Of a stretch of DNA of 64,000 bases, positions 28,125 through 42,604 are shown piece by piece. This DNA is from Candidatus Uhrbacteria bacterium. Its GTDB lineage: Bacteria; Patescibacteriota; Patescibacteriia; GWA2-47-26. Made by a program: the position numbers and the translations under genes. Every line of letters begins with the position of its first letter. The stretch's first letter is position 1. The notes under the pieces were generated by a model. It saw only the letters and a list, made by a program, of their open reading frames with translations, had not been told where the DNA came from and ran no database searches. The stretch covers positions 4,525 to 68,524 of the forward strand of contig JACPJN010000008.1 of assembly GCA_016187515.1 (NCBI GenBank), given 5' to 3'.

Positions 28125-28154
28125 AATGCGGAGCAGTGGCGAAGAACAGCGAAT

Positions 28155-28270
28155 TCCGGGGTGGCGCAGCGGTAGCGTACGCCTTGGGCGGGAGTCGTGC
28201 CTGTCCGCCTCTGGCGGAGGTTCTGCGCCTTAGGCGCACTCGCCTATGGCGAGGAATCCTTACGTCGTGT
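28155..28270 (+). other. tRNA-like fragment: first ~25 nt identical to the tRNA-Asn 5' half, followed by three tandem triloop mini-hairpins (CCGCC-TCT-GGCGG, TGCGCC-TTA-GGCGCA, CTCGCC-TAT-GGCGAG). Not a canonical tRNA
   Basis: No anticodon or T arm can be folded. Identity with 28293-28317 read directly from the sequence. Confidence 0.3.
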
Positions 28271-28292
28271 ATAAATATATCGAGTTTCAGGC

Positions 28293-28364
28293 TCCGGGGT
28301 GGCGCAGCGGTAGCGCAGCTCCCTGTTAAGGAGTTGGTCGTGGGTTCGAATCCCACCCCCGGAG
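28293..28364 (+). tRNA. tRNA-Asn (anticodon GTT)
   Basis: Manual cloverleaf: acceptor TCCGGGG/CCCCGGA, D arm GCGC-AGCGGTA-GCGC, anticodon arm GCTCC-CTGTTAA-GGAGT, T arm GTGGG-TTCGAAT-CCCAC, discriminator G. 72 nt. Confidence 0.85.
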
Positions 28365-28510
28365 CCTGAAACTTACTATGTTCCATGTATATATCATCCA
28401 AAATCTTACTCGTGGTACGCGTTATGTGGGTAGTGCCGAGGATGAGGAATCCCACTCTCGGAGGCATAGTGAGAATTAAATTTCAATATTCTTCACTCGA
28501 CCCCCAAGCC

Positions 28511-28557
28511 CAACCGGGCTGATTTTTGTTTTTGAGGTGGTAGAGTGGGGGAATATG
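28511..28557 (+). promoter_or_regulatory. conserved box: small terminator hairpin (AGCCCAACCGGGCT) + TTGATT-17nt-TAGAGT promoter-like spacing, ending GGGGGAATATG (probable leaderless start). Copies at 29551-29599, 29841-29913, 31165-31213; variant at 28753-28809
   Basis: Four to five near-identical copies. Each precedes either an S element or a cassette gene ATG. Confidence 0.4.
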
Positions 28558-28580
28558 TTTGAAATACAAAACAAAGTGCA

Positions 28581-28752
28581 TTCTGCAATTCTGCGGAATC
28601 GCAGACCAAGAGGTGGGGAGGTGGGGGTCAACTCAATATCACCACCGCATCCCCCAAATGTCATCCCCGAGCGGCATCGGGGATCCAGTCAATTTCCCCT
28701 CTCCGACCGAGGTCGGAGGGATTAAGGCCTGCCTGCGCAGGCAGGGGTGGTT
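28581..28752 (+). repeat. S element copy 1: ~170-nt GC-rich structured repeat with four predicted hairpins
   Basis: TCTGCGGAATCGCAGA, TCCCCGAGCGGCATCGGGGA, CTCCGACCGAGGTCGGAG, GCCTGCCTGCGCAGGCAGG. About 90-95% identical to 29621-29820 and 30891-31089. Confidence 0.7.
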
Positions 28753-28806
28753 TTACTGCTCAAAGAGGGTTTACTTCAATGCTAAAAAGTGGTAGGATGG
28801 GGGAAT

Positions 28807-29415
28807 ATGAATCAGGAGGAAATTAAAAAGTTCTTGGAGTCATTTCAATCAAGGCAAGACAGGACTATCGTGATTGTTGATTATGGAAATGTAGAAAAGT
28901 GGAAAAATAGCTTAGGTTGGAAAGTTGGTATTAAGCAGTTGGGTAATCTTGTAAAACACTTTTCCAGCGGCAAGCAATTTTTACGTAGATTCTACTACGG
29001 GTCAGATTATGGGAAGAATGAGCGATCAACTTTGCGGTCCGAGTGGTCACGCTCGGCTACCGATCGCGCAAAGATGAACCGTTTTGAGGTGGTGACGAAA
29101 CGCGTCAAATGTATGCATAGCCAATCCAGCAAATATGGCTTTGAAAAGAAATGCGACTTAGATGTGGAGATGACCGTTGATCTTATCAAGGAGCGTGATA
29201 ATTATGACACGATTATTATCTTTTCAGGTGACGGAGACCTAATGTATGCAATTCGATATTTACGCGACATGTATGACAAGAAGTGTATTGTGTTTGGAGC
29301 CCGCGGACATATTGGGAGAGAGGTATTTGATGCGAAAGTTGAGGGGTTTGTAAATAATATTTTGTTTGCTGATGACTTTGAATATCGCCTTAATGACGCA
29401 CGATTTCGATGCTAA
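28807..29415 (+). CDS. NYN-domain (LabA-like, PIN-fold) putative RNase; cassette gene 1
   Basis: IVIVDYGNV ... CDLDVEMTVD ... IIIFSGDGDLMYA acidic motifs of NYN/LabA domains. Start taken at the ATG of the conserved box (ORF-track GTG at 28789 is in frame). Confidence 0.65.
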   Translation: MNQEEIKKFLESFQSRQDRTIVIVDYGNVEKWKNSLGWKVGIKQLGNLVKHFSSGKQFLRRFYYGSDYGKNERSTLRSEWSRSATDRAKMNRFEVVTKRVKCMHSQSSKYGFEKKCDLDVEMTVDLIKERDNYDTIIIFSGDGDLMYAIRYLRDMYDKKCIVFGARGHIGREVFDAKVEGFVNNILFADDFEYRLNDARFRC

Positions 29416-29620
29416 AAATCAAAAACCCGCCCAAATAGGCGGATTTTGATCAAAATGGGGTAAGCCCAAAGCTTACATTAATAATGTATCAAGCAAGCGC
29501 TGATTTGTCAATAGTTTTATCCACATGCGGTTTTTGGTTGAAAATCAGGCCATTCGGGCTTGAGTTTTTGTTTTTGAGGTGGTAGAGTGGGGGAATATGG
29601 CAATGCACAATTGAACACTC

Positions 29621-29855
29621 GGTCTGCGATTCGCGCGAATCGCAGACCGAGAGGTGGGGAGGTGCGGGTCAACTCAATATCACCACCGCATCCCCCAAAT
29701 GTCATCCCCGAGCGGCATCGGGGATCCAGTCAATTTCCCCTCTCCGACCGAGGTCGGAGGGATTAAGGCCTGCCCGCCAATCGCCTGACGGCTCAAGCCG
29801 GATGGCAGGCGGGGGTGGTTGCCAACCGCCCGCCCCAAGCCCCAATCGGGCTTGA
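29621..29855 (+). repeat. S element copy 2 (with an extra 3' extension carrying a GGTTGCCAACC hairpin and a terminator-like AGCCCCAATCGGGCT + T-run)
   Basis: Aligns with copies 1 and 3. An indel in the GCCTGCC..GGCAGG arm. Confidence 0.7.
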
Positions 29856-29910
29856 TTTTTTGTTTTTCAAGGGTTTACTTCAATGCTAAAAGGTGGTAGA
29901 GTGGGGGAAT

Positions 29911-30627
29911 ATGAATGAGGAGGAAAAAATAAGAGAGATGGCCATCGAGTTTGCGAAGCGAAATAAAAAGCGTATCGCAAAAGTACTGACTGATCCAAAG
30001 GTGTATGCGCCGGATCCTAATCCGATATCGGTGTTTATGGCTGGTTCTCCCGGCGCGGGGAAAACGGAATTGTCAAAAAACCTGATTGATCTTTTGGAAC
30101 GGGAACGAGAGCGCCGCGTCATTCGTATTGATGGCGATGAAGTCCGTCCGCTTATCCCCGGATATACCGGGGTAAATTCAAACTTATTTCATGGCGCTAT
30201 ATCTCTTATCGTTGAAAAAATGCAGGATTTGGCGTTGCATCAAGGTCAAACGTTTATATTGGACGGAACCATGGCAAATACTAATAAAGCAGTTGATAAT
30301 GTGCAGAGGTCGCTCGATAAGAATCGCACGGTTATAGTGTTTTATGTTTACCAACGACCCGAAGTCGCTTGGCAGTTTACACAAGCTCGCGAAGCGAAAG
30401 AAGGAAGGAATATACCCAAGTCGGCATTTATTGAACAATTCTTTGGTGCAAAGGATACCGTGCGCCGCGTTCATGAATTATTTCCAAGGAACGTAATGAC
30501 GTTTCTCGTAAAAAAGGATTTCAAAAATCGGACAGTTGAACATGTTAAGCTTGAGCATTCCGGTGCCGCGCTTGACACATATATCGGGGAGACGTATACT
30601 AAAGATGAACTTGAGCAACACTTATGA
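29911..30627 (+). CDS. zeta-toxin-like P-loop kinase (AAA/Zeta_toxin family); cassette gene 2
   Basis: Walker A MAGSPGAGKTEL, Walker B-like FILDGT, and overall similarity to zeta toxin / UDP-GlcNAc kinases. Confidence 0.6.
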   Translation: MNEEEKIREMAIEFAKRNKKRIAKVLTDPKVYAPDPNPISVFMAGSPGAGKTELSKNLIDLLERERERRVIRIDGDEVRPLIPGYTGVNSNLFHGAISLIVEKMQDLALHQGQTFILDGTMANTNKAVDNVQRSLDKNRTVIVFYVYQRPEVAWQFTQAREAKEGRNIPKSAFIEQFFGAKDTVRRVHELFPRNVMTFLVKKDFKNRTVEHVKLEHSGAALDTYIGETYTKDELEQHL

Positions 30628-30806
30628 AATTATTCAATATTTTTAAAAAACCAACTGAAGCCAAGCGTTCAGGGGGTTTTTCCGATTTCTTTTTGCATGC
30701 AAACGAAGAAGAAAAACGCAGAGTTATTGAAGAGGCCGCGCGGCGGGCCAACGAGGATCAACGCCGTCTGGTTGAACAATACGAAGCCCAAAAGAAAACC
30801 GCCTAA
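30624..30806 (+). CDS. small charged protein (60 aa) translationally coupled (ATGA overlap) to the zeta-like kinase; possible cognate antitoxin/partner
   Basis: Overlapping stop/start. Highly charged, helical sequence EEEKRRVIEEAARRANEDQRRLVEQYEAQKK. Confidence 0.35.
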   Translation: MKLFNIFKKPTEAKRSGGFSDFFLHANEEEKRRVIEEAARRANEDQRRLVEQYEAQKKTA

Positions 30807-30821
30807 CCCGGGCGGTTTTTT
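30795..30821 (+). terminator. rho-independent terminator (ACCGCC-TAACCCG-GGCGGT + TTTTTT)
   Basis: Stem-loop plus T-run; contains the stop codon of the small ORF. Confidence 0.6.
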
Positions 30822-30890
30822 AGTACATCATAGAAACAGCCATGCTCACAGCTCACAAATCACCAAGCTCACAAAGGGCTTGATTTTTTC

Positions 30891-31089
30891 TATTCTGCGA
30901 TTCTGCGGAATCGCAGACCAAGAGGTGGGGAGGTGCGGGTCAACTCAATGTCATCACCGCGCCCCCCAATGTCATCCCCGACCTGATCGGGGATCCAGTC
31001 AATTTCCCCTCTCCGACCGAGGTCGGAGGGATTAAGACCTGCCCGCCAATCGCCTGACGGCTCAAGCCGGATGGCAGGCGGGGGTGGTT
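30891..31089 (+). repeat. S element copy 3, followed by a half copy of the family-1 palindromic element (31111-31150) and the conserved box
   Basis: Aligns with copies 1-2. A frame-breaking difference relative to copy 1 shows it is non-coding. Confidence 0.7.
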
Positions 31090-31210
31090 GCAAACAATCC
31101 GCCAATCAATTCCTCCCCTTAAGGTAAGGGGAGGCGAGGAGGGGTTATGCTTCCGTCTCAATCCCAATCGGAGTTGATTTTTTGTTTTTGAGGTGGTAGG
31201 ATAGGGGAAT

Positions 31211-31915
31211 ATGGAGGACACAAATCAAACTACAAACAAGGCCTTTACAATCCATGATCTGCCTTTTGAGGAGCGTCCGCGAGAGCGACTGGCGCAACTT
31301 GGTGAACAAGCGCTTTCAGCACAGGAATTGTTGCAGATTATTCTTGGCCGAGGCGTGGCCGGAGAATCAGTCGCGGTAACTTCCCAAAAGTTAATTTCAC
31401 GCTTTGGCAGTCTTCCAAAACTATCCGAAGCAAGTGTTGAAGAATTATCGCAGATAAAAGGCATTGGTCTTGCGAAAGCCGCTCAAATTAAAGCCGCGTT
31501 TGAAATCGGGCGGCGGGTTTCCACGCAGACCGCGCCTTACAAAAGCAAAGAGCTGAATGATCCTGAAAAAGTATTTCGGCTGATAAAAAGCAAACTCAAG
31601 GATTATCACAAAGAGCATTTTTACATTATTCCCATCAATAGTAGGAATTGGTCGGTGGCGGAAGTATCCATTGGCACACTTAACGCCAGCTTAGTGCATC
31701 CCCGCGAGGCATTTTCGCAAGCGATAAAGGCGAACGCCGCCTCGGTAATTTTCGCGCACAACCACCCGTCCGGAGATCCTGAACCTTCCGAAGACGACCT
31801 TGCAATCACAAAACGACTGGTTGAGGCGGGAAAACTGCTAGGAATTGAAGTGTTGGATCACCTTGTTGTCGTTCAAAATGGATTTTTTAGTTTCAAGGAG
31901 AAAGGCCTGATTTAG
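31211..31915 (+). CDS. radC: RadC-like JAB/MPN domain protein (UPF0758); cassette gene 3
   Basis: HhH region (GIGLAKAAQIKAAFEIGRR) and JAMM-like motif SVIFAHNHPSGDPEPSEDDLAITKRL. Confidence 0.75.
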   Translation: MEDTNQTTNKAFTIHDLPFEERPRERLAQLGEQALSAQELLQIILGRGVAGESVAVTSQKLISRFGSLPKLSEASVEELSQIKGIGLAKAAQIKAAFEIGRRVSTQTAPYKSKELNDPEKVFRLIKSKLKDYHKEHFYIIPINSRNWSVAEVSIGTLNASLVHPREAFSQAIKANAASVIFAHNHPSGDPEPSEDDLAITKRLVEAGKLLGIEVLDHLVVVQNGFFSFKEKGLI

Positions 31916-32052
31916 TTATACACAGCCGGAGTTTGACAGAATTCAGGATGTACATTATTATGTACATATCATCATTTTAAAAATGATGCGGGATAAAACC
32001 CTGTAAAAATGTTTCTCGCAGTACGTAACTGCAGTTAACAAACGGAAACGCT

Positions 32053-32424
32053 ATGAATACTAAGACCACCATATCCATATCCGAGGCAAGGAAAAATATT
32101 TTTGACATCGCAGATGATGTTCAAAAACCAAATAATTATTACACACTAACCGAAAACGGACGGCCTAAGGCAGTCATTCTTTCGGCTGAAGAATTTGAGT
32201 CATGGCAGGAAACTCTTGAGGTAATGCGCGATTTTCCGGATTTGGATAAGGACGTAAAGGAAACGGATCGTGCGGTTGCAAGCGGTGAATGCAAGAAATG
32301 GGCGACTCTTGATGATATTCTTGCCAAAGAAGGATATATTGTGGCGGACCGGCCTAAACAAAAATATGGAGTATCAACTAAGGTTCAAATCAAGCGCGGA
32401 AAGAGAGTTAGAAAAAATAGATAG
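32053..32424 (+). CDS. Phd/YefM-family type II antitoxin
   Basis: N-terminus TISISEARKNIFDIADDV..YTLTENGRPKAVILSAEEFESWQETLEV is typical of YefM/Phd. Confidence 0.65.
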   Translation: MNTKTTISISEARKNIFDIADDVQKPNNYYTLTENGRPKAVILSAEEFESWQETLEVMRDFPDLDKDVKETDRAVASGECKKWATLDDILAKEGYIVADRPKQKYGVSTKVQIKRGKRVRKNR

Positions 32425-32617
32425 TCGTTATAAACCCCGCATCCTTGAGGCAATCGTCAGCATTAGGCAGGATCCCTATATTGGCAAGAAATTAGAGGGG
32501 GATAGAAAAGGAGAATGGTCATATCGCGTATGGCCATATCGTATTATTTATCGCATTTACAAACACGAATTGTTGATAATCATCATCCGCATCGGGCACC
32601 GGCAGGGGGTGTATTAA
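32366..32617 (+). CDS. RelE/ParE-family type II toxin (overlaps the antitoxin 3' end in another frame)
   Basis: C-terminal WSYRVWPYRIIYRIYKHELLIIIIRIGHRQGVY matches RelE/ParE. Start taken at the internal ATG 32366 of the 32270 ORF. Confidence 0.6.
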   Translation: MEYQLRFKSSAERELEKIDSRYKPRILEAIVSIRQDPYIGKKLEGDRKGEWSYRVWPYRIIYRIYKHELLIIIIRIGHRQGVY

Positions 32618-32620
32618 AAT

Positions 32621-35023
32621 ATGACACAATATAAAAATCTGGAAGAAAAAATTGGTGCATACCTGGACAGCAATGAAAAACAGACTGTCAATTTTAAGGC
32701 CAGTGATTGGAGTGTTGTGTATGGTAATAAAATTAAACAGCATAAGGTTGTAAATAAAGTTACAGGAGATGAGGAATTTGTACGAATGTATTTGGTTTCA
32801 AAATTAGTGAACGAATTAGGGTATAAAGATGAAAATATTGAACTCGAAAAAACTTACCAAGCAGGACGACCCAAAACTATAAAGCCTAGGATTGACGTTA
32901 TTGTAAAAGATTCAAAAGGCAATCCTTTCTTTTTTATAGAGATTAAAGCTCCTGAAGAATTTGAAGCGGGTAAAAGTTTGATTGAAGATCAACTCTTCGG
33001 GTTGGCGGCGTTGGAGGAGGGAAAGTACGGTACGAATATAAAATATTTAGTTTACTTTTCAGTTGACGTCAATGATGTTGGTGCAATTAGAGATAAGTTA
33101 ATTGTGATTGATTACCAAAAATACCGTACATATGAGGTATGGGAAAAAGATGGTTTTCTGTCAGTAGCGGATGAATTGCCCGCGCGATACGAAATGGCAC
33201 AGAAAGAACCCTATATAAAAGGTGGCAAGAAGGATTTACTAAAAACTTTTGATAAAACTGATTTGAATTCCTTACGTGCAAACTTGCACAATGTACTATG
33301 GGGTGGTGGCGGTACAGATGATAATGACGTATTCGCCTATTTGGTAAATATAGTATTGGCCAAGATTCAAGATGAAGGTGAAAAAGCAGATGGTGAAAAA
33401 TATGATTTTCAGATCTTTACCTATGAAAAACAAGGGGGTGAAAAGTTTGAAAGCGATGAAGAGCTTTTCGAGAGAATTAATGGACTATATAGGCGAGCAC
33501 TCAAACAAAGACTGTATATAACCGATGAGGCGAAGTTAAAAAAGAGTTTTGTTATTGATGAAAACAAATTTTCTTTGAACAAATTAAAATATGCGGTTGG
33601 TGCATTAGAAAAATATTCTTTTGTTGATGGAAAAAATAATTTTGATGGCAAAGATATTTTGGGCGACTTTTTTGAGGGTATTATTCGTGAGGGGTTTAAA
33701 CAGACAAAGGGTCAATTTTTTACGCATATCAATGTGGTCCGGTTCATGCTTTGGGGTCTGCAGCTTGATAAGCTCGCCATTGAAAGGGTAAATAAGGATG
33801 TTGAACTGCCGTATCTTATTGATCCAAGTGCAGGCAGTGGCACATTTCTTATTGAATACATGAAATTTATTACTGACAATCTCAAGCGGAGATTTAGGAA
33901 TCAACTTGCGAAAAAACGAGATGTCGAGGATAAATTTCATCAGTGGTTTTTACCAGACCATCGTGAGAATAAATGGGCAGAAAAATTTATCTACGGTGTA
34001 GAGATAAATTTTAATCTCGGAACTGCTACTAAGGTGAACATGATCCTGCATGGTGACGGTTCCACCAATGTTTTTGTCAAGGATGGTCTTTTGCCATTTC
34101 GATTTTATGATAAGGAGACGGCACCGAATTTTCTTAAGCAATACGAGGAAGAAAAGACGTATTTTGATAAGGAGGTAAATGCGCAATTTGATGTAGTCAT
34201 TAGCAATCCACCCTTTAGTGTTGATTTGGATAATGAAACAAAAAAGAGTGTGAAGAAGGAGTTTATCTTTGGTGATAAAAAGAACTCGGAAAATTTGTTT
34301 ATAGAAAGGTGGTATCAATTACTGCGTGAAAATGGCCGACTAGGAGTTGTTTTGCCCGAAAGCGTGTTTGACACCACGGAAAACAAATATATCCGCCTGT
34401 TCATCTATAAATATTTCAAAGTAAAAGCAGTCGTGAGTTTGCCCCAGCTTACCTTTGAGCCATTTACTTCCACTAAAACCAGCCTGCTTTTCGCCCAAAA
34501 GAAAACCAAAGCAGAAATAGAAGAATGGAATAAACTCTGGAGCAAATACTCAAACGAATGGAGCGCGCTCAAAACCCGATGTGAAAATCTACTTGCTGTA
34601 TACCTTGAAGACAAAGACAGAAAAAAACTGCCCTCGATTAAGGATCTGAAAGAAGCTGAAGAAAAGCAAATTCTCGCGCGAATGCTCAAGGATTATCTTG
34701 AAGAAGACGACAAGAAGCTTTCTGCTAAGGCGCTGGTAGAAAAGTATCAAGACGAGCTCAAAGAGCTTTGCAAATACGATAATGACACCAAGGACGCATT
34801 TGGCTTTGTAAATACTTGGTGGGTATTTGGCGAAGTGGCAAAAGAGCTCAATTACAAAATCTTTATGGCGGAAGTGGAAAATGTGGGCTACAAGCGCACC
34901 AAGCGCGGCGAAAAACCGATGTCAAACGAACTATATCGCACAAACAGCAAGGGTGAGATTTTGATTGATGACGGCGAAACCAGAACCGCGCTGGATTATA
35001 TGAGAAAAATTGAGTGGGAGTAA
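32621..35023 (+). CDS. restriction-modification enzyme: N-terminal PD-(D/E)xK nuclease-like domain (HsdR_N-like, ..RIDVIVKD..FFFIEIK..) fused to a gamma-class N6-adenine DNA methyltransferase
   Basis: MTase motif I IDPSAGSGTFL and motif IV VISNPPF. N-terminal D..EIK nuclease motif. Followed by a specificity-subunit gene, giving a Type IIB/IIG- or Type I-like architecture without a separate HsdR. Confidence 0.7.
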   Translation: MTQYKNLEEKIGAYLDSNEKQTVNFKASDWSVVYGNKIKQHKVVNKVTGDEEFVRMYLVSKLVNELGYKDENIELEKTYQAGRPKTIKPRIDVIVKDSKGNPFFFIEIKAPEEFEAGKSLIEDQLFGLAALEEGKYGTNIKYLVYFSVDVNDVGAIRDKLIVIDYQKYRTYEVWEKDGFLSVADELPARYEMAQKEPYIKGGKKDLLKTFDKTDLNSLRANLHNVLWGGGGTDDNDVFAYLVNIVLAKIQDEGEKADGEKYDFQIFTYEKQGGEKFESDEELFERINGLYRRALKQRLYITDEAKLKKSFVIDENKFSLNKLKYAVGALEKYSFVDGKNNFDGKDILGDFFEGIIREGFKQTKGQFFTHINVVRFMLWGLQLDKLAIERVNKDVELPYLIDPSAGSGTFLIEYMKFITDNLKRRFRNQLAKKRDVEDKFHQWFLPDHRENKWAEKFIYGVEINFNLGTATKVNMILHGDGSTNVFVKDGLLPFRFYDKETAPNFLKQYEEEKTYFDKEVNAQFDVVISNPPFSVDLDNETKKSVKKEFIFGDKKNSENLFIERWYQLLRENGRLGVVLPESVFDTTENKYIRLFIYKYFKVKAVVSLPQLTFEPFTSTKTSLLFAQKKTKAEIEEWNKLWSKYSNEWSALKTRCENLLAVYLEDKDRKKLPSIKDLKEAEEKQILARMLKDYLEEDDKKLSAKALVEKYQDELKELCKYDNDTKDAFGFVNTWWVFGEVAKELNYKIFMAEVENVGYKRTKRGEKPMSNELYRTNSKGEILIDDGETRTALDYMRKIEWE

Positions 35024-35966
35024 ATCTATGTTTAAGCTTTGGAGTGAGCAAAATAATGAGGCGAAACAATTACTGAGTCCCAACCTTGATTTAAGGAGTT
35101 GGGACGATCTTTCAAATGAAGAAAAGGAAAAGATGTGGAATTTCCTTAAAGAATGGTTTAATCGCGAGGATGACCCGCGAGTTTTACTCGCGATTATTCA
35201 TTTAAATGAAGTGCATAAATTTAGGTCGTATGCGAGGGCGACGTTAGAGCATCCTTCTCCGAGGAGTTCCTCTGCGGATTTTAAGAATATATTTTTTAAT
35301 GAGAGCCGCCATGTTGTATTAGAATGCTTATCCTGCTTTTGCAAATCTGTTCTCGACGAACGCCGGCGTGATAGCGGGAGAATTTATCGACATGATTATG
35401 ATTCAGATGAAGAATACATGGAGGCATTGACCAGATGGCGATTTAACGAATTTGATAAATTCACAGAGAGAATCAATGATGTCTTTGAACATTTCAGTAT
35501 TAATTTGATTCTTACTCGAAGCGGATTTATTGATAGACAGGATCCGAAAGTAGTGCAGGAAATTTATGTACCAGTTTTAAATTTTCTTTCCTTGCCGAAA
35601 TGGAGAGATGTTAACAGAGACCTCAGTGATGCCTTCAAGGAATATCAAATAAAGACCGCGCAGAGTTATAGTAATTGCATCACGCATGCGGTCTCAGGCG
35701 TGCAGGCTTTTTTGCAGATTTTGGTGCATGAGCAAACAGGCGGCGAATATGGTATTAGCAACCTTATAAAACAAGCGCAAGAAAAAGGTCTCATTCCGGA
35801 GGATAAATTTTCCAATGCCATTTTTAAAAACGTAGAAACAATTTTGATGGGTGAGAGAGGGAAAACTGGAGATGCTCATCCAAAGCAAGAATATGCGAAT
35901 GAAAAGAACGCTCGTTTGGTCTTAAATTTGATTATGATATTCATCCAGCACTGTATTCAGAAATAA
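35010..35966 (+). CDS. hypothetical 318-aa protein embedded between the MTase and S genes; candidate accessory defence gene
   Basis: 14-nt overlap with the MTase stop; the S gene starts 3 nt after its stop (tight operon). No recognisable motif. Confidence 0.4.
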   Translation: MSGSKSMFKLWSEQNNEAKQLLSPNLDLRSWDDLSNEEKEKMWNFLKEWFNREDDPRVLLAIIHLNEVHKFRSYARATLEHPSPRSSSADFKNIFFNESRHVVLECLSCFCKSVLDERRRDSGRIYRHDYDSDEEYMEALTRWRFNEFDKFTERINDVFEHFSINLILTRSGFIDRQDPKVVQEIYVPVLNFLSLPKWRDVNRDLSDAFKEYQIKTAQSYSNCITHAVSGVQAFLQILVHEQTGGEYGISNLIKQAQEKGLIPEDKFSNAIFKNVETILMGERGKTGDAHPKQEYANEKNARLVLNLIMIFIQHCIQK

Positions 35967-35968
35967 CT

Positions 35969-37426
35969 ATGTCACTAAAACAATTTACAACTGACTTTCG
36001 GGAATTAGCTCAAGATAGTTTTTTGAGAAGTGACGAGAAATACCATGTCTTTTTAAATTCATCAGACTGGAATTTATTCGGTAACAAAGACAAAGATTTG
36101 GTAGCACTGAGAGACATTTTGATTGATGACTACCAAAATTTTAAATATGACGAGGGCGAGGAGTACAAAGGAATCCCGACAGGACAAACATATTTGGACG
36201 AAGACGGTTATATCAAAAGTTTCGATTTAGTAACGGCCGAAGATCATCCTGGGAGGTTGAAATATAGAGTTTCAAATGACAATATTCTTATTTCAAGCTT
36301 GAGATTGGCAAAATCTCCCGCTTTGTATTTTGAAAAAGAATATTTGGCTGGTTATGTTTTTTCAAACGGCTTTTATATCTATAAAGTCAAAGAGGGATGG
36401 AACAAGAAATTTCTTTTGTATATTTTACGGACAAAACGATTAAAAAGTATTTTGGATAATAACATCTATAGGGGCATTGGAATTTCTGCATACAAAGATG
36501 ATGATTTAAAGAAAATAAAAATTCCTCTAGTTTCAAAATCTACCCAAGACAAAATCGTTGCACGAATTGAGCCAATTGAGAAGAGGATTAAAGAGCTCAA
36601 AAATCAGATCACGCCGCCGCAGGAGGTTATCAATGAAGTTTTTGCACGAGAGTTTAAGTTTGATTTAAAGAAGTTTGAGGAACTAAAGAATATCAAGAAT
36701 TATTATCTTGAGCTGTCTAAATTTGCGGACAATAGAGATATTCGGCAAAGCGTTAAATTTCACAGAGAAGCAGGGGCATTTGTGATAGATCAGTCGAAAA
36801 AAGTTACCAACAAAAAAATAAAGCATTTTTTGGCGGAGCCGATCGTGCTTGGTAAAGGCGTTTCGCCTTCAAATTATGACGAGAATGGTGACTACTTCTA
36901 TGTTTCAATGGCGAATATCAAAAACTGGAAATTCGAAAGCGAAGATTCAAAATTAGTTTCAAACGAATATTCAAAAAAAAATCAGAACAAAACAGTTGCA
37001 AAAAACGATATTTTAATCGCCCGTTCCGGCGAGGGAACTATAGGGAAAGTCGCGCTAATTGACGATGAAGATTTGAAGGGAATTTTTGCCGATTTTACAA
37101 TGCGAGTTAGATTGCAAAATTATGCCCCTTTGTTTGCTTATTATTATTTTAGAACTGAATATTTCCAGTATTTAGTCGAGGTGAATAAAAAAGGACTTGG
37201 AAACAATACCAACATTTTCCCGAGCCAGATTCAGGAATTTCCGATGATTGATGTTTCTCTCAAAAACCAGCAAAAAATTGTGGCCGAAATCAAGACGGAG
37301 CTGGACGCGCAGGAAGAAATGAACCGAAAAATTGAAACCGAGCGAAATAAAATAGATGAAATCATAGAAAAGCTGATCCAGCATGCGAGATATCAACCCA
37401 CACCAGAACGGTTTTACAGCCCTTGA
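35969..37426 (+). CDS. hsdS: restriction system specificity (S) subunit with two target-recognition domains
   Basis: Two variable regions separated and followed by conserved coiled-coil repeats (IKELKNQI.., IVAEIKTELDAQEEMNRKIETERNKIDEIIEKLI) typical of HsdS. Confidence 0.7.
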   Translation: MSLKQFTTDFRELAQDSFLRSDEKYHVFLNSSDWNLFGNKDKDLVALRDILIDDYQNFKYDEGEEYKGIPTGQTYLDEDGYIKSFDLVTAEDHPGRLKYRVSNDNILISSLRLAKSPALYFEKEYLAGYVFSNGFYIYKVKEGWNKKFLLYILRTKRLKSILDNNIYRGIGISAYKDDDLKKIKIPLVSKSTQDKIVARIEPIEKRIKELKNQITPPQEVINEVFAREFKFDLKKFEELKNIKNYYLELSKFADNRDIRQSVKFHREAGAFVIDQSKKVTNKKIKHFLAEPIVLGKGVSPSNYDENGDYFYVSMANIKNWKFESEDSKLVSNEYSKKNQNKTVAKNDILIARSGEGTIGKVALIDDEDLKGIFADFTMRVRLQNYAPLFAYYYFRTEYFQYLVEVNKKGLGNNTNIFPSQIQEFPMIDVSLKNQQKIVAEIKTELDAQEEMNRKIETERNKIDEIIEKLIQHARYQPTPERFYSP

Positions 37427-37465
37427 CTTTGTGTAGTTAATCAGTATAATGATTAGACAATTGCT

Positions 37466-38359
37466 ATGTCAGATCCATTTACAATTCGTATATTTGTTCC
37501 GGAGGGCGATCCGGAAGGGATTCGTATTATTGATCGCCTTAATTCGACAGGTACTTTTTTTGCATTTCCAAGAGCAAAATGGGCGCAAATGCGCAATCAT
37601 GAAAAACTTAATCAAGCCGGAATTTATATTTTAAACGGTTATGCAAATCCGGACGATGAATTGCCGACTATTTATGTTGGTCAAGCAGATGTAGTTAAGA
37701 ATAGAATTGAGCAGCATACGCGGAATAAAGATTTTTGGGACAAAGGAGTGGTGTTTGTTTCTTCAAACATGAATGTGACATACGCAAAGTGGCTTGAGTA
37801 TGCCCTAGTTAAGCAAGCATCGGAGGCTGGACGGAGTATACTTGAAAATGGTAATAATCCGCAGGAGCCCAACATTTCTGAATCGGAAAAAGCGGACATG
37901 CAAGTTTTTCTAAAGGAAATCTATCAGACATTACCGCTCGTTGGTCTGAGTGCATTTGAGATACCTAAGACAGTTGCGAAGCCGGAGACAGTGCGCCAAG
38001 AACATGCCAGCGATAGAGATACGATTGTGGTTCCGGCTCAAGAGGATGGATTTAAGCGGGTATTCCTCGGAGAAAATGCGTGGTGGTCTGTTCGCATATC
38101 CGGCGGCATGCTTGATAAGATTCGATATATCGCAGCATATCAAGTCGCACCAATAAAAGCCATTACACATATTGCTCAAGTGAATCGTATTGAACCGTAT
38201 GGTGAAGAGGGAAAATACAAATTAATCTTTACAGAGCCCGCAAGGCGTTTGGATAATCCAATTCCATTTGGCAATGCGCCACAGGGGATGATGCAAGGTC
38301 CAAAATACACGAATTTTGAAAAATTGAAGAAGGCAAAACAATTAACGGATCTTTTTTAA
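37466..38359 (+). CDS. GIY-YIG nuclease-family protein with an uncharacterised C-terminal domain
   Basis: GIYILNG..TIYVGQA..VKNRIEQH matches the GIY / YIG / catalytic Arg-Glu pattern. Co-oriented 39 nt after the S subunit gene. Confidence 0.55.
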   Translation: MSDPFTIRIFVPEGDPEGIRIIDRLNSTGTFFAFPRAKWAQMRNHEKLNQAGIYILNGYANPDDELPTIYVGQADVVKNRIEQHTRNKDFWDKGVVFVSSNMNVTYAKWLEYALVKQASEAGRSILENGNNPQEPNISESEKADMQVFLKEIYQTLPLVGLSAFEIPKTVAKPETVRQEHASDRDTIVVPAQEDGFKRVFLGENAWWSVRISGGMLDKIRYIAAYQVAPIKAITHIAQVNRIEPYGEEGKYKLIFTEPARRLDNPIPFGNAPQGMMQGPKYTNFEKLKKAKQLTDLF

Positions 38360-38385
38360 GTGTGTAGTGAATTTAACCCCGCACA

Positions 38386-38557
38386 CTCATCCTTACAAAC
38401 TCCAGTATTTAAGGATGAAAGTGGTCATACAGATTTTTGCACTGGATAGAGGGCCTTGCGCCGGATTCCGTGGCCTGCCCCCACACCAATTTTAGAAATA
38501 TTGGTGTGGGGGCAGGCCGCGAGGCATTTGTGCTTATATATTTTTTCCGTGGATGAT
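38386..38557 (+). repeat. R2 element copy 1 (~170 nt: CCTTAAAT..ATTTAAGG hairpin, then a 20-bp perfect stem GCCTGCCCCCACACCAAT-TTTAGAAAT-ATTGGTGTGGGGGCAGGC, then a T-run)
   Basis: Direct repeat of 39769-39939 (~90% identical). A partial third copy of its first arm at 38703-38740, followed by a partial S element at 38744-38790. Confidence 0.6.
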
Positions 38558-38915
38558 CATGTGAAATCTCTCCCACCCCCTCTAACTCCCCCTCGGGCAG
38601 GGGGAGAAATTTTATTGGGCAGGAGGGGAAAGTGATAACCGAATACTCGCCAAAAGATTTTAAAAATTTTTAATCCCACACCCCAAACTCCCAACCCCAA
38701 ACCATCCTTAAATTCTCAAGTATTTAAGGATAAAAAATCTCCATTCTGCGATTCCCTCCTACGGCGGACAGGCGCGCGAATCGCAGAATGCCGCAGTGGA
38801 CAGGCACACGTTAAGCGGGGTAGGCAGGAATCCAAAACGCGTCACCATTGGCGCGTTTGTGCATATACTTGACATTTTCCTTCATTTATGAAACAATGTC
38901 TTCAGGAGGAAAACA

Positions 38916-39623
38916 ATGGAAAATCGTTCATTTTCATTTGATACATACCAGGCCACACATCCAAAGACCGATGCGGTGTGGAAAGCACTTTGCGCCGGCC
39001 CGCTTCGTGCGGCAATTCAAGCCACGTTGAAGCTGTTCGTCGAAGATGCTTGTCGGTTTTTTGTCATCCATGCGGGGCAAGTACAGACCCTATCGCATGA
39101 TCAGCGCATTGAATTGTACTACCTTCATTACATTAGCCCTTTGTGTTCGCCGGGAAGCCTTCCAGATACCAAACCCCGCGAGGTATTCTCACGGGTACTC
39201 ATTGCCGCGATTACTGAATTCGTGGATTTGGAATCCGGACGTACATTCCCCGGCGCCAAGAGTCGCAAAGTTACCTTAGGCGAAGTCCATGAAACAAGTT
39301 TCGGGGGTGATGCCTCGGGTGAGAATGGTATAAGGATTGTGGATGCGGAAATTGAATTACTGCGGCATGTGTGGGATGAACTCTGCCAGCTAAAGGAGGT
39401 ATCGGATCTTGAGGATCGGACCGCAGGGGCGCCGGTTCTGAATTTTCCGTCGTCGTTGGATAGCGAATTCTGCGCGGAGGAGTTTTCCAGCGTGTGTATG
39501 GGTTCGTTCCTGCGTGTCCTTGTGGACAATATTCTCCACCTGTATGATTATTTCGGTGATCCGCAGTACGTGCGAGAAATGGCGGAGCAAGCGGCGCGCG
39601 AGGAAGCCAGATCTGGTAACTAG
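38916..39623 (+). CDS. hypothetical protein (235 aa), GC-rich, flanked by R2 direct repeats
   Basis: Strong RBS GGAGGAAAACA before the ATG. No recognisable motif. Confidence 0.4.
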   Translation: MENRSFSFDTYQATHPKTDAVWKALCAGPLRAAIQATLKLFVEDACRFFVIHAGQVQTLSHDQRIELYYLHYISPLCSPGSLPDTKPREVFSRVLIAAITEFVDLESGRTFPGAKSRKVTLGEVHETSFGGDASGENGIRIVDAEIELLRHVWDELCQLKEVSDLEDRTAGAPVLNFPSSLDSEFCAEEFSSVCMGSFLRVLVDNILHLYDYFGDPQYVREMAEQAAREEARSGN

Positions 39624-39768
39624 CCTATAAGGAGGGGTGCTCGACATTGCGCCGCACGACCCGGCATTTTGCCGTGGTCTTTTTTTGTAAAATGACCCAG
39701 AATTTCTTGACACCACCCCTCGCCGGGCGGGGGAGTGGGCGGATGTTCCACCCCCCCCCCAACACCAA

Positions 39769-39939
39769 CTCATCCTTAAATTCTCAAGTATTTAAGGATG
39801 AAAGTGGTCATCAGATTTTTACATTGTATAGACGGCCTTGCGCCGGATTCCGTGGCAAGCCCCCACACCAATTTTAGAAATATTGGTGTGGGGACAGGCC
39901 GCGAGGCAGTTGTGCCTATACATTTTTTCCGTGGATGAT
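39769..39939 (+). repeat. R2 element copy 2, preceded by a C10 homopolymer (39751-39760)
   Basis: Aligns with 38386-38557. Confidence 0.6.
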
Positions 39940-40016
39940 TAGGATGGCATATAGTCCCGCGTACGACACTTTGTCTCGCGCGCTTGTTGGTATTTGATGG
40001 CGATGGTATACTATAG

Positions 40017-40529
40017 GTGTATATGGTAAAAAATCCCAAAATTAACGAGAAAAAGTACCGCAATGCCGTGCTTTTTTTCGCGAATAAGATTCGCAATGGT
40101 ACACTGGGCAAACTGAAGCTGATGAAGCTTTTGTATTATCTTGATTTTGATTTTTTTGAGAAGTATGGCCGGTCGGTGACTGGAGACGAATATTTGCGTT
40201 TTGAAAATGGGCCGGTACCACGGATGGCCGAGAAGACATTAAAGCGGATGCGGGGCAAGGAAATAAAAATTGTGAACCGCAAGATGCAAAAAGGATATAA
40301 TGATCAGCAGCACATTGAGCCGCTTATCACATTTGATCCAAGTTCTTTTTCACGAGAAGAAATTTTGATGATGGAAGAAATTGCTGATAAGTGGGAGAGG
40401 TTTACCGGAACGGAAATGAAAAGTGCGAGTCATGGTGAAGCGCCATGGATCGCCACAAAGCCGAACGATGTTATTGACTATAATCTTTCGTATTACCGCA
40501 ATAAATATGCCGAGATGGAACGGCTTTAG
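40017..40529 (+). CDS. Panacea-domain (DUF4065, SocA/PanA-like) putative antitoxin
   Basis: KLKLMKLLYYLDFDFFEKYGRSVTGDEYLRFENGPVPRM matches the DUF4065 core (KLQKLLYF....G.pl..d.f.aw.GPV). Confidence 0.6.
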   Translation: MYMVKNPKINEKKYRNAVLFFANKIRNGTLGKLKLMKLLYYLDFDFFEKYGRSVTGDEYLRFENGPVPRMAEKTLKRMRGKEIKIVNRKMQKGYNDQQHIEPLITFDPSSFSREEILMMEEIADKWERFTGTEMKSASHGEAPWIATKPNDVIDYNLSYYRNKYAEMERL

Positions 40530-40535
40530 TGTGGT

Positions 40536-40871
40536 ATGGAAATTTCTCGGCACGATGCTATTGAAAAAGATTTTCGTGCGTTAAGACGTTCTGCCGCGCC
40601 GCAAGAATCGCTTGAGGCATGGGAACGCCTTTTTTGTTTAAAGGGGTTACGGGAAACGCCGGCAATTGACGCGTTCCCCGGGTTTGGCGGGCGGAAAATT
40701 TTCAAAGGGCGAGTGGTGCCGCTTAAAGAAAATGTGGGCAAGTCAAAAGGGTATAGGGTTATTTTTGAGATGGTTCATGAAAGTCATTGTATCATTTTGG
40801 TTTTTTCGCGACATGGCGTGTACCATACTGAAACGGAGCTAGTTGCGCTAATTAAAGAACGCCTTCATTAA
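40536..40871 (+). CDS. putative RelE/ParE-fold toxin partner of the Panacea antitoxin
   Basis: C-terminal KSKGYRVIFEMVHESHCIILVFSRHGVYH resembles the RelE/ParE/HigB C-terminal strand motif. 7-nt intergenic gap. Confidence 0.45.
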   Translation: MEISRHDAIEKDFRALRRSAAPQESLEAWERLFCLKGLRETPAIDAFPGFGGRKIFKGRVVPLKENVGKSKGYRVIFEMVHESHCIILVFSRHGVYHTETELVALIKERLH

Positions 40872-41009
40872 AAGGGCGCTTGGGAGTGTTTACGGGAACT
40901 TGGTCAACGGGCAGGGGGAGAAATTTTAATGGGCAGGCGCTAGCCATCCTTCGACCGACGGTTGCTGTGGATAAGCAGATGTTGTACAATGCCACAATAA
41001 AAAATAAAT

Positions 41010-41201
41010 GTGGATAGCTTTAATATGCACGATCTTTCCTGCGCGACCTGCGGCTCGCTTGCCGAGGGGTTTAAGTGCGCCGCGTGCGGAATTGAACAGG
41101 ACGAGTTTGAGGCCGGGCATTTGTGCGGCGACGAGCACCTGATGCCGAAATGCTCGATCTGCAGCGAGGCCGAAACCGAATGCAATTGCGATAGTTTATA
41201 G
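41010..41201 (+). CDS. small Cys-rich protein (63 aa, 9 Cys: CxxC, CxxC, CxxC, CNC) - zinc-ribbon-like
   Basis: Cys spacing read directly from the translation. Followed by a strong terminator. Confidence 0.4.
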   Translation: MDSFNMHDLSCATCGSLAEGFKCAACGIEQDEFEAGHLCGDEHLMPKCSICSEAETECNCDSL

Positions 41202-41206
41202 GGCAT

Positions 41207-41243
41207 AAAAACATATCCCCCTTATCGGGGGATATGTGTTTTT
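41207..41243 (+). terminator. rho-independent terminator (ACATATCCCCC-TTAT-CGGGGGATATGT + TTTTTAA)
   Basis: Perfect 11-bp stem plus T-run. Confidence 0.7.
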
Positions 41244-41268
41244 AATTTGTATGCTATAATACGCATAT

Positions 41269-41841
41269 ATGGGTATGGGATCCAAACTCTACGCTATCCA
41301 GAGTATCGCTCTGGCGGTGGGTATCATTATTGTTTTTAATCTTTTTGTTAATTTTGGCGTTCGGACGTTTTACGCGCCCCTGAAATACGAGCAATTTTGC
41401 GAGGAAGGGAAGGCCGCTCGGGCCTACTCCGAGCGTCAGTCCTGCGAGGGGGTGGGTGGATTTTGGTATGAGCCCGGCGCCAATCCCCATGGCAGTCCGT
41501 ATCCGGCCCGTCCGGTCGCGGTCGGCGAGAAGTATGAGCCGCAAGGATGGTGCGATCCGAATTATCAGTGCAATAAAAATTTCCAGAACTCGAGCGAGTT
41601 ATATAATCGCAATGTTTTTATTGTCCTGATCATTGCCGGGGTCTCAGCGCTGGCAATCGGACTTTTTATTAAGGCCGCGACCGCGGTGGCCACCGGATTT
41701 ATTTTTGGCGGGGTAGTATCGCTTATTGTCGGCACGATTCGCTATTGGTCGGACATGCAGGAGTACTTGCGGTTTATTATTCTGGGAATCGCGCTGGTAA
41801 TTCTCATCCTGGTTGGATGTCGGCGCCTTAAATCCGCGTAG
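41269..41841 (+). CDS. hypothetical membrane protein (3 TM helices, Cys/Pro-rich periplasmic loop)
   Basis: Hydrophobicity pattern only. Confidence 0.35.
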   Translation: MGMGSKLYAIQSIALAVGIIIVFNLFVNFGVRTFYAPLKYEQFCEEGKAARAYSERQSCEGVGGFWYEPGANPHGSPYPARPVAVGEKYEPQGWCDPNYQCNKNFQNSSELYNRNVFIVLIIAGVSALAIGLFIKAATAVATGFIFGGVVSLIVGTIRYWSDMQEYLRFIILGIALVILILVGCRRLKSA

Positions 41842-42020
41842 GATTTATATGTCATCGCCGAAGTCCGTACCGCTAAGGGCGGAACGCCGCGAGCGAAAGA
41901 AAAAAATCAAAATGGTGATCCACGGCAAGGGAGTAAAAACGCAGCCGTCTTACGGAATTCCCCGCTGCGCGCGGCGCGTAAAGCGGAGTCGGATCTTAGC
42001 CGGGCCTTCTCGCTCGGTTT

Positions 42021-42063
42021 AGACGGACGTGTAATGCTTTTGGAGCTGGCACGTCCACTTTTT
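42021..42063 (+). terminator. putative terminator / attenuator immediately upstream of the ECF sigma gene (GGACGTG..CACGTCC + ACTTTTTT)
   Basis: 7-bp stem with a long loop followed by a T-run that ends at the sigma ATG. Confidence 0.35.
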
Positions 42064-42064
42064 T

Positions 42065-42604
42065 ATGGAGGGCAAGCCGATAATCTACGCCTCCGATATA
42101 CTTGATCTTGACGTGTTTGAGCGGCTTTATCGCGAATACGGGCAGCGCCTCTACCGGTTTATCTGGCTGCGAGTCGGACAGCGCGAGGACGCGGAAGATA
42201 TTCTCGCCACGGTATTTGTCCGGCTTTGGGAATTTTCGGAAAAATATCCCCAGACCCCCATTCGCTCGGTAAATGCCCTGCTTTATCGAATTGCGCGCAA
42301 TGCCGTGATTGACGCGCGGCGCAAGCGCAAAATCCCGCTGCTGTCCATGGAAGAGTTGAGCGCCCAAGGAATGGAATTTGAGGACGCTGCCCAACCCGAT
42401 CCGCGCGTCAGTTCGGAAATATCCTTGGTGCGGGAGGTGATGCGTTCACTTCAAAGCGCGGAATATGAAATTATCGAGCTGCGTTTTGTGGAGGGCTTCA
42501 AAGTCGCGGATATCGCCGCGCTTTACGGGATTTCCGAAAACAGCGCGGCCGTGCGCATTCATCGCGCCATGAAAGGTCTAAAGAAATTGATGAAAACCGG
42601 TTAG
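42065..42604 (+). CDS. ECF-type sigma-70 family sigma factor
   Basis: Region 2 (YRFIWLRVGQREDAEDILATVFVRLWE) and region 4 HTH (KVADIAALYGISENSAAVRIHRAMKGL). Confidence 0.75.
   Translation: MEGKPIIYASDILDLDVFERLYREYGQRLYRFIWLRVGQREDAEDILATVFVRLWEFSEKYPQTPIRSVNALLYRIARNAVIDARRKRKIPLLSMEELSAQGMEFEDAAQPDPRVSSEISLVREVMRSLQSAEYEIIELRFVEGFKVADIAALYGISENSAAVRIHRAMKGLKKLMKTG

Follow-up and report, generated by a model that had tools for sequence, protein, structure and literature searches.

Repeats and genes downstream of tRNA-Asn

The present analysis concerns 64 kb of the genome of an uncultured groundwater Candidatus Uhrbacteria (Patescibacteria/candidate phyla radiation, CPR), hereafter termed the window, and in particular a group of repeats located just 3' of its tRNA-Asn gene. 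Nearly all window genes are oriented on the + strand. Downstream of the tRNA are genes for an NYN/LabA-like protein, a Zeta_toxin-family P-loop kinase with a coupled 60-aa open reading frame (ORF) and RadC, and each of these three genes begins at the ATG that closes a short repeated sequence, here termed the box. Interspersed among the genes are three copies of a longer, hairpin-rich and non-coding sequence, the S element, and all box and S copies are confined to ~2.9 kb (Table 1). Repeats at this site had been reported in an initial annotation and are borne out, with three S copies and five box copies, all on the + strand. However, the three units are similar rather than identical in architecture as had been proposed, since the S copy of unit 3 is not preceded by an orphan box and that of unit 1 ends in a weak terminator. 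While the box and S sequences are novel and confined to a narrow lineage, the kind of element is already known.

The repeats do not appear to result from misassembly. Logan contigs derived from separate sequencing runs of this project cover positions 29769-30929 and 31121-38506 at 100% identity, including a contig (L091) identical to the region of the zeta gene and the 60-aa ORF, while ten contigs that begin at 31121/31128 are 100% identical to unit 3. Although Logan contigs break within the repeats, the perfect agreement of these independent short-read contigs indicates that units 2 and 3 are not assembly artefacts. Three NCBI proteins from a Candidatus Uhrbacteria metagenome-assembled genome (MAG; MBI2552555.1, MBI2552556.1 and MBI2552558.1) are identical to window proteins. 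Based upon RpoD, the closest species-representative genome belongs to Candidatus Falkowbacteria (66% identical), and the best non-self matches in a larger protein collection are 79-82% identical.

Table 1. Coordinates of the features discussed in the text. Positions refer to the window unless a relative is named.
Feature	Position	Strand	Basis or remark
tRNA-Asn (GTT), left island anchor	28293..28366	+	ARAGORN; Rfam tRNA 70.4 bits
Small hairpin AGCCCAACCGGGCT + T-run, terminator-like 5' part of long-form module	28507..28533	+	terminator scan, alignment to other copies
Box copy 1a, orphan, GGTGGTAGAGTGGGGGAATATG	28536..28557	+	ATG 28555-28557, then 22-nt spacer, then S1
S1, hairpin mosaic H1-H5, short H5	28580..28752	+	ends in weak terminator-like CCTGCCTGCGCAGGCAGG+GGTGGTTTTA
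Box copy 1b, AGGGTTTACTTCAATGCTAAAA upstream variant	28766..28809	+	ends at NYN ATG
NYN/LabA-like gene, 202 aa, MBI2552555.1	28807..29415	+	Pfam PF01936, E=1.2e-14
Candidate convergent small-RNA-like gene 3' of NYN	29413..29511	-	promoter and terminator scan
Left flank of unit 2, TTGTCAATAG..TTATCCACATG..GGTTGAAAAT, then hairpin + T-run	29494..29575	+	blastn vs L092
Box copy 2a, orphan	29578..29599	+	ATG 29597-29599 = 5-codon ORF, then spacer, then S2
S2, H1 (15-bp stem), H2, H3, H4, long H5, H6	29618..29866	+	terminator-like hairpin 29836-29854 + T-run
Box copy 2b, AGGGTTTACTTCAATGCTAAAA variant	29870..29913	+	ends at zeta ATG
Zeta_toxin-family P-loop kinase	29911-30627	+	Pfam PF06414, E=6e-42
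60-aa ORF, ATGA overlap with zeta stop	30624-30806	+	stop/start overlap
Hairpin + T-run adjoining S3, short-form junction T-run+CT+ATTCTGCG	30864..30889	+	same junction in L092
S3, H1-H6	30890..31095	+	without upstream orphan box
Extra palindromic module CCTCCCCTTAAGGTAAGGGGAGG..GGAGGGGTTATG	31106..31153	+	family with at least 9 other window copies
Hairpin + T-run + box copy 3 (GGTGGTAGGATAGGGGAATATG)	31157..31213	+	ends at RadC ATG
RadC, UPF0758 N-terminal/HhH + JAB domains, 234 aa	31211..31915	+	PF04002 + PF20582
Rest of putative island	31916..42064	+	Phd/ParE, N6-methylase, specificity subunit, SocA/Panacea-domain protein, unknown ORFs
In-frame palindromes, LigA	11751-11832
In-frame palindromes, UvrD	45519-45600
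In-frame palindromes, MetRS	50732-50810, 51347-51404, 51799-51880
Other in-frame palindromes	46458-46574; 48263-48304; 52306-52335; 53208-53269; 54677-54758; 58919-59001
NYN-convergent small-RNA-like gene in relatives	L097 6619-6722; L098 6604-6703; L136 1637-1738
Motif TTGTCAA-N2-5-TT(A/G)TCCACA	window 29505-29525; L092 9664-9685; L133 15243-15262; L097 ~6700-6722

A repeated box that ends at the start codon

The box (GGTGGTAGAGTGGGGGAATATG) is present at 28536, 28788, 29578, 29892 and 31192, with at most three mismatches among the copies. No further copy exists in the 64-kb window, and shuffled sequences yield an expectation of 0; an exact-pattern scan of viral contigs likewise returned no match. 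In three copies, the closing ATG is the start codon of NYN, zeta and RadC, respectively. For NYN, this start agrees with its full-length 202-aa homologues. The remaining two copies are orphans, their ATG being followed by ~22 unrelated nucleotides and then by S. Eight boxes from three genomes were aligned, located before NYN, RadC, DUF3800, zeta in two cases and an orphan spacer in three, and in each of them the homology breaks off precisely at the ATG.

Upstream of the box, two forms can be distinguished. The initial annotation had described a hairpin and a TTGATT hexamer with the box of every unit, which is accurate for the long-form copies, whereas in the boxes preceding NYN and zeta the hairpin/TTGATT/T-run part is replaced by AGGGTTTACTTCAATGCTAAAA. 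The upstream regions of these two genes have 57 nt in common at 93% identity. A terminator scan placed terminator-like hairpins with T-runs at 28507, 28728, 29545, 29836 and 30864. A further shared sequence, TTC(A/G)ATGCTAAAAA, is found at the NYN stop codon (29405-29418) as well as upstream of the NYN and zeta boxes (28775-28788 and 29879-29892), and it looks as if an NYN-like 3'-end remnant had been copied along with the box. Two other ideas, that S contains an anti-box complementary to the box and that the box derives from a tRNA D-arm, were not convincing when judged by eye.

The propagation of promoters upstream of non-homologous genes is an established concept (Matus-Garcia, Nijveen and van Passel 2012; PMC3488235), and the putative mobile promoters (PMPs) described in that work are defined as upstream stretches of 50-100 nt. 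As with PMPs, the box is highly similar upstream sequence, at least 80% identical before non-homologous genes, and is found both within one genome and among relatives. It differs in that its core measures only ~22-40 nt and ends exactly at the ATG, a precision that does not belong to the definition of PMPs, and in that its promoter role is putative. The promoter-like parts of the box are TTGATT or TTTACT and TAGAGT or TAGGAT, separated by 16-17 nt, all recognized by their resemblance to consensus; a GTAG tetranucleotide, of the kind conserved at the 5' end of repetitive extragenic palindromes, is present within the box as well (GGTGGTAG). The box behaves as an expression signal fused to start codons, and a leaderless promoter is plausible because a -35-like hexamer is located at 16-17 nt in both upstream variants, the box contains TGgTAGAGT and Shine-Dalgarno (SD) sequences are scarce genome-wide. 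Leaderless or otherwise non-SD initiation is probably common in this organism, given that an SD sequence precedes very few window genes and that a TAnnnT hexamer lies 6-8 nt upstream of the ATG in several of them (e.g. at 2324, 7618, 41269 and 43642).

The S element is a mosaic of palindromic modules

The three S copies (approximately 28580-28752, 29618-29835 and 30890-31095) are 88-96% identical in pairwise comparisons where alignable. Each folds into a row of local hairpins, with a z-score of approximately -5.6 on either strand and equally stable folding energies for the two strands (-132.7 vs -136.3 kcal/mol). The copies differ by entire modules: H5 is short in S1, whereas in S2 and S3 it is enlarged by a nested insert of 27 nt and an H6 is added. 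S3 carries one more module (31106-31153), which belongs to a family represented at least nine other times in the window. Several modules exist separately elsewhere in the window, such as the short form of H5 at 56976-56996, H1 in a 97-nt spacer between housekeeping genes at 63969-63995 and H1 with a loop insertion at 38744-38790, all of which had been recorded initially and are confirmed here. The core modules H2-H4 are seen in intergenic DNA only. Thus, the hairpins of the initial annotation are genuine, but S is not the single structured unit it had envisioned; it is a lineage-restricted mosaic of separately occurring palindromic modules.

S is not protein-coding, as had been stated previously. 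Its reading frame is not kept between copies and a protein search with one frame detected neither homologues nor spurious-ORF copies. The 56-aa ORF opened by the orphan box of unit 1 likewise lacks any counterpart in a set of 1.84 billion representative proteins, and we reject a coding function. Rfam 15 contains no family matching S either at the gathering score, which only the tRNA passes in the window, or at E values up to 10. Exact-pattern scans with the S core or the H1/H2 junction yielded no match in genomes, metagenomes (two patterns) or viral contigs, and S2 together with the box had no blastn match among plasmids and phages.

Several categories of repeat can be compared with S. Its ends have no terminal inverted repeats, and the direct repeats flanking it (hairpin plus T-run) are too long and too variable for a target-site duplication; hence, we rejected a miniature inverted-repeat transposable element. 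Tandem Repeats Finder identified only trivial 8-11-nt two-copy repeats in 28100-32100. The Correia elements of Neisseria and the BOX elements of Streptococcus pneumoniae are likewise modular intergenic hairpin repeats able to carry promoter or terminator signals and to change the expression of genes beside them. However, Correia elements, unlike S, possess terminal inverted repeats, together with a TA target duplication, while BOX elements have a defined boxA-B-C order and S has no fixed module order. We consider these to be functional analogues, the closest kinds being PMPs for the box and, for S, the repetitive extragenic palindromic (REP) sequences and bacterial interspersed mosaic elements (BIMEs) of enterobacteria and pseudomonads. 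Like S, the latter are GC-rich palindromic units arranged in variable intergenic mosaics, multi-copy and lineage-restricted. Two features of the window agree with such a classification. Short palindromes are far above chance, as 59 perfect hairpins with a stem of at least 8 bp are present compared to 2-5 in shuffled sequences, although the many intragenic copies are atypical for REP. The organization is also mosaic, with S1-S3 and the copy from a related genome described below differing by whole modules. In contrast to BIME/REP, the S sequences are unrelated, the modules are longer and more varied and they are linked to a box that abuts start codons; related palindromes are also found in frame inside genes, and no gene for a REP-associated tyrosine transposase (RAYT; TnpA-REP, IS200/IS605-like) was detected among the ORFs scanned in the 64 kb.

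Box and S in related genomes

Additional copies of these sequences are present in two relatives. In the Uhrbacteria MAG GCA_016203545.1 (L092), a 75-nt left flank, S, a hairpin with T-run and a box precede zeta, and the S-box-zeta block is located downstream of a DUF3800 gene rather than NYN. The initial annotation had called for a survey of the genes associated with S, and this block does occur in a second gene context. It is 87% identical to the window overall (S ~90%, box 96%), whereas housekeeping genes of the same locus are 74-80% identical. The left flank (L092 9652-9727, upstream of its S copy) matches that of unit 2 at 86% by blastn. Exactly the H4 palindrome is deleted from the L092 S copy, and other modules occupy the H5/H6 position. 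Its 5' junction (T-run + CT + ATTCTGCG) is of the S3 type, while its flanks are of the unit 2 type, which therefore indicates exchange between copies. At the same locus, a box without S lies directly after a UvrD-like gene and ends at the ATG of DUF3800 (MPYIFLDESG). In the second relative, GCA_964495135.1 (L135), a hairpin with T-run, the box variant GAGGTGGTAGAGGGAGGGGATATG, a homologous spacer and H1 are found before an ArsR-like gene at an unrelated locus. H1 occurs twice in L135, and its box unit retains only H1 of S. We also considered H1 as an operator of the ArsR-like gene, which was dropped, as the window has no orthologue of that protein.

The locus itself is variable, as a comparison of the tRNA-Asn-downstream region among relatives makes clear. 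The order rpoD-tRNA-Asn is kept in both L133 (RpoD 82% identical) and L135 (RpoD 79%), but the genes that follow differ: GIY-YIG, methylase, DUF3800 and ResIII helicase genes in L133, and an extracytoplasmic function (ECF) sigma gene directly after the tRNA in L135.

These findings invite comparison with integrons, and an integron-like logic had been suggested initially. S or the box would then be a recombination site for gene capture, with exchange at the box fusing the ATG of each gene to a portable signal. Unrelated single genes, structured repeats between them and a variable locus, here beside tRNA-Asn, are indeed shared with integron arrays (intI, attI, attC). The homology that ends exactly at the ATG in eight copies with five different downstream sequences is compatible with capture, as are the zeta unit downstream of a different gene in a relative, the two orphan boxes whose unrelated 22-nt stubs could be remnants of lost genes, and the NYN-3'-end-like remnant (TTCAATGCTAAAAA) upstream of two boxes. 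However, no integrase or other recombinase is encoded among the ORFs tested in the island (28.4-42 kb; Pfam, NCBIfam, PADLOC) or among the other window ORFs tested, in agreement with the absence of integrases and transposases noted initially. S contains local hairpins only: folds and inverted-repeat searches revealed no attC-like end-to-end pairing, and neither a GTTRRRY core nor any shared core site is present at both ends of the units. The repeat is located 5' of the genes and is missing from one junction, as there is no S between NYN and box 2a. Furthermore, integron cassettes are promoterless and depend upon a common Pc, whereas here each gene has its own box and terminator-like sites separate the units. 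Homologous recombination between repeats would account for the same data. As the defining features of integrons were not found in the sequences and ORFs tested, this scenario strikes us as very improbable. A broader version is nearly as doubtful, namely that box and S form a portable CPR platform for gene capture and expression, in which genes would be joined at their start codons to a leaderless signal and exchanged among loci and genomes by recombination. Under this view, the orphan boxes would represent slots that are vacant or have decayed, and a transcribed structural RNA, namely S, would be required for the process. The exact ATG junction is the sole feature that keeps it alive.

A proposed propagated start-signal block and its alternatives

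At a probability of roughly 0.55, our preferred interpretation is that a terminator/start-signal block and BIME-like hairpin mosaics have been propagated by duplication and recombination before accessory genes. According to this interpretation, NYN, zeta with its 60-aa ORF, and RadC would be three adjacent but unrelated transcription units, each starting at the ATG of a propagated box. The 22-40-nt box would combine a terminator hairpin and T-run with weak -35/-10 hexamers and, immediately upstream of the ATG, a run of sequence rich in G, functioning either as a promoter of leaderless mRNA or as a ribosome-binding region. S would usually be closed by an intrinsic-terminator-like hairpin, and S and the box would be copied jointly within the island and between related genomes through duplication, gene conversion and homologous recombination, the routes by which mobile promoters and mosaic extragenic repeats are also dispersed. 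BIME/REP elements are transcribed together with neighboring genes and act as 3' hairpins or terminator-like structures. Here, the block would most likely insulate neighboring genes by means of the hairpin stack and terminator while providing a ready-made start signal.

A number of points weigh against this proposal. The leaderless -35/-10 start of the initial annotation is plausible in light of the SD scarcity and the -10-like hexamers, but the box has just 8/12 matches in a generic sigma-70 consensus scan, which is below threshold, and we infer its promoter and terminator roles, as well as the mode of spread, at the level of consensus and comparison. In the L135 variant (TAGAGG, GGAGG), a -10 T has been lost and a canonical SD gained, which therefore favors a ribosome-binding site over a leaderless promoter. 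The precise loss of homology at the ATG, common to all copies, is also not what randomly inserted mobile promoters typically show. Our inspection covered 64 kb of the source genome plus ~10-kb pieces of two relatives. Moreover, the conservation of the terminator-box-ATG-spacer-H1 unit at the unrelated L135 locus would fit equally well with S having its own promoter. Lastly, all five one-sided substitutions in H2 keep pairing as G-U, and they do so on the + strand only, which hints at selection upon the + strand RNA fold, as would suit a functional RNA better than a purely selfish DNA repeat.

The latter observations bear upon the possibility that S is a discrete small RNA (sRNA), transcribed from the orphan-box promoter with a ~22-nt leader followed by H1-H6 and a T-run end, and that it regulates or guards adjacent genes in cis or in trans. 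The order terminator-box-ATG-spacer-H1 is kept in units 1 and 2 as well as L135, with a recognizably homologous spacer; terminator-like sites are found at the ends of S2 and S3; and S is 90% identical between two genomes with housekeeping genes at only 74-80%. Conversely, a promoter box is missing from S3 and from the L092 copy, and the copies differ in module content, with H4 absent from L092 and H1 alone retained in L135. The fold is equally stable on both strands and Rfam contains no match. The three neighboring proteins are not related to one another, and for two of them a toxin function is not evident. The G-U retention in H2 is accompanied by two pair-breaking changes, of which one lies in H2 and the other in H1, and a covariation comparison, underpowered at 3-4 S copies, yielded no double compensatory change. 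On balance, we regard an sRNA as somewhat unlikely.

Alternatively, S could be a cis-acting 5' leader or attenuator, in which a transcript from the orphan box would include a short leaderless ORF and the hairpin stack, and conditional termination at the last hairpin with its T-run would control the downstream gene. Units 1 and 2 do exhibit the order expected of such a device (promoter-like box, 5' mini-ORF, hairpins, terminator, gene), and the L135 box-H1 unit is upstream of the ArsR-like gene. Yet, the mini-ORFs differ in frame and length (56, 5 and 29 codons), every downstream gene is supplied with a box of its own or with a separate promoter, no box precedes S in unit 3 or in L092 and the folds provide no evident alternative antiterminator pairing. 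This makes attenuation unlikely in our estimation, and the propagated start-signal block remains our favored explanation.

Genes of the three units

Pfam searches agree with the gene identities originally assigned to NYN, zeta with its coupled 60-aa ORF, and RadC, but the description of all of these as toxin-like was overstated for two of the three. The NYN protein has 885 full-length homologues of ~200 aa that are 65-77% identical, distributed across many Patescibacteria lineages and encoded in varied gene contexts. By exact protein, no occurrence in other samples is on record, and viral contigs encode no close orthologue, only relatives at 32% identity or below. RadC matches the NCBIfam equivalog NF000642 at 242.5 bits (cutoff 180) and is thus canonical. 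Only the zeta kinase carries a toxin-family name, although it scores far below the NCBIfam PezT equivalog cutoff; NYN and RadC are not obviously toxins and should not be called such from context alone. In addition, a promoter-like sequence, TTGACA-17-TATACT (11/12 matches), is located at 30572-30600 within the zeta 3' end, 24 nt before the 60-aa ORF. Hence, the ORF may be independently expressed, as expected of an antitoxin-like partner.

These identities are pertinent to the type III toxin-antitoxin (TA) logic suggested by the initial annotation, according to which S would be the RNA antitoxin of each downstream protein. A structured non-coding element and terminator upstream of a protein gene, in this case a possibly toxic zeta gene, do recall ToxIN, CptIN and TenpIN. 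Unlike those systems, S is not a tandem repeat array, and no ToxN/AbiQ/CptN/TenpN-family protein is found among NYN, Zeta_toxin and RadC (Pfam, NCBIfam, PADLOC). The same element precedes three unrelated proteins, all of which one RNA would need to neutralize, and the promoter of unit 3 lies between S and the gene with none before S. As type III TA fails its defining features, we reject it as scarcely credible.

A candidate small RNA gene 3' of NYN

Convergent to NYN is a short element with features of its own. On the minus strand, it contains a TTGACA-17-TACATT promoter (29511-29483), a 5' hairpin of 6 bp (29476-29460) and a long terminator (29447-29422) whose U-run reaches the NYN stop codon. 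An element of ~64 nt is conserved beside NYN in three other CPR taxa (L097, L098 and L136). The consensus of the four sequences consists of a TTGAC(A/T)-17/18-TAnAnT promoter, a GTAAGC/GCTTAC hairpin and an invariant linker (AUUUUGAUCGAAAUCCGCC); two pairs in the hairpin are compensatory, and the G-U pairs of the terminator are valid on the minus strand only. There is no Rfam match and a motif scan of viral contigs found none. With four sequences only, these patterns are suggestive of a conserved small RNA gene, which may act as an antisense regulator or antitoxin of NYN.

A comparable arrangement of a gene and a convergent structured RNA is seen in L092, where 9498-9650 (-), downstream of DUF3800, comprises a TTGACA-17-TATAGT promoter and a terminator, between which ~140 nt are strongly structured (-64.9 kcal/mol, z -5.2). 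The motif TTGTCAA-N2-5-TT(A/G)TCCACA is found repeatedly beyond the 3' ends of NYN or DUF3800 genes across several CPR genomes (Table 1). Its second half matches the DnaA-box consensus TTATCCACA, and on the minus strand the motif closely precedes the -35 hexamer of the convergent promoter.

Palindromes and a probable variable island

Palindromic sequences are not limited to S. GC-rich palindromic families (e.g. CCTCCCCTTACCTTAAGGGGAGG and CTCCCCCTCGGAAAGGGGGAG) lie in frame within essential or housekeeping genes, where they add peptide inserts. The affected genes encode MetRS (three insertions), LigA, UvrD, cysteine desulfurase, ThiI, CvpA, TatD, a GT2 glycosyltransferase and a Wzy-like protein, and Pfam domain matches are split by palindromes in MetRS, LigA, UvrD, cysteine desulfurase and GT2. 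Two identical 36-nt perfect palindromes (CCGCAAAAAGCTCACGATCGTGAGCTTTTTGCGG) are found 44 kb apart at 14111-14146 and 58403-58438, one intergenic and the other inside the Wzy-like ORF. Rickettsia palindromic elements (RPE) similarly occur both intergenically and in frame in essential genes, like the palindromes of this genome, one of which is in unit 3. However, the phylum and sequences are different and S modules H2-H4 have been seen only between genes.

The region from 28.4 kb to ~42 kb is best read as a variable accessory/defence island at tRNA-Asn. Beyond RadC, it encodes the PADLOC candidate defence proteins PDC-S32 and PDC-S14, and GC content drops to 0.34-0.41 at 32-38 kb. We tentatively place its right boundary at ~42 kb from the ECF sigma gene of L135, which is 37% identical (distant) to window 42065-42604. 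Within the island, an intergenic block of ~175 nt is duplicated at 38385-38558 and 39768-39940 (91% identical, with a 19-bp-stem hairpin inside), preceding an unknown 235-aa ORF and the SocA/Panacea-domain gene; its first hairpin is present a third time, as a partial copy, at 38690-38735. Thus, S is not the only intergenic sequence to have been copied.

The vicinity of the tRNA contains further irregularities. Upstream, at 28155-28260, is a pseudo-copy of the first 23 nt of tRNA-Asn followed by short hairpins, and downstream, at 28378-28479, a truncated GIY-YIG ORF (MFHVYIIQNLTRGTRYVGSAEDE...) is fused to a tRNA 3'-end-like stub. In L133 (11268-11345 and 11503-11805), an intact GIY-YIG ORF is situated between tRNA-Asn and a tRNA 3'-half-like sequence with an inserted hairpin. 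We rejected the partial tRNA-Asn copies as a far attR, since the window contains no further occurrence of the tRNA 3' end. Contigs of two more distant CPR genomes (L011 12361-12433 and L012 20847-20919) stop at tRNA-Asn or at most 150 nt past it, downstream of rpoD, which would fit with this tRNA being followed by a repeat-rich or variable region in other lineages too.

Implications

The S/box finding opens no new class of system, and the RPE-like in-frame palindromic insertions and the sRNA-like gene convergent to NYN may be more novel. It also documents a tRNA-Asn-linked variable island in Uhrbacteria, and it carries practical lessons for annotation, as repeats in such genomes break assemblies and orphan ATGs invite false ORFs. 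More generally, our results suggest how a reduced CPR genome, nearly devoid of Shine-Dalgarno sequences, may wire acquired accessory genes, namely by means of a compact terminator/start-signal block, accompanied by hairpin mosaics, that appears to be copied before them.

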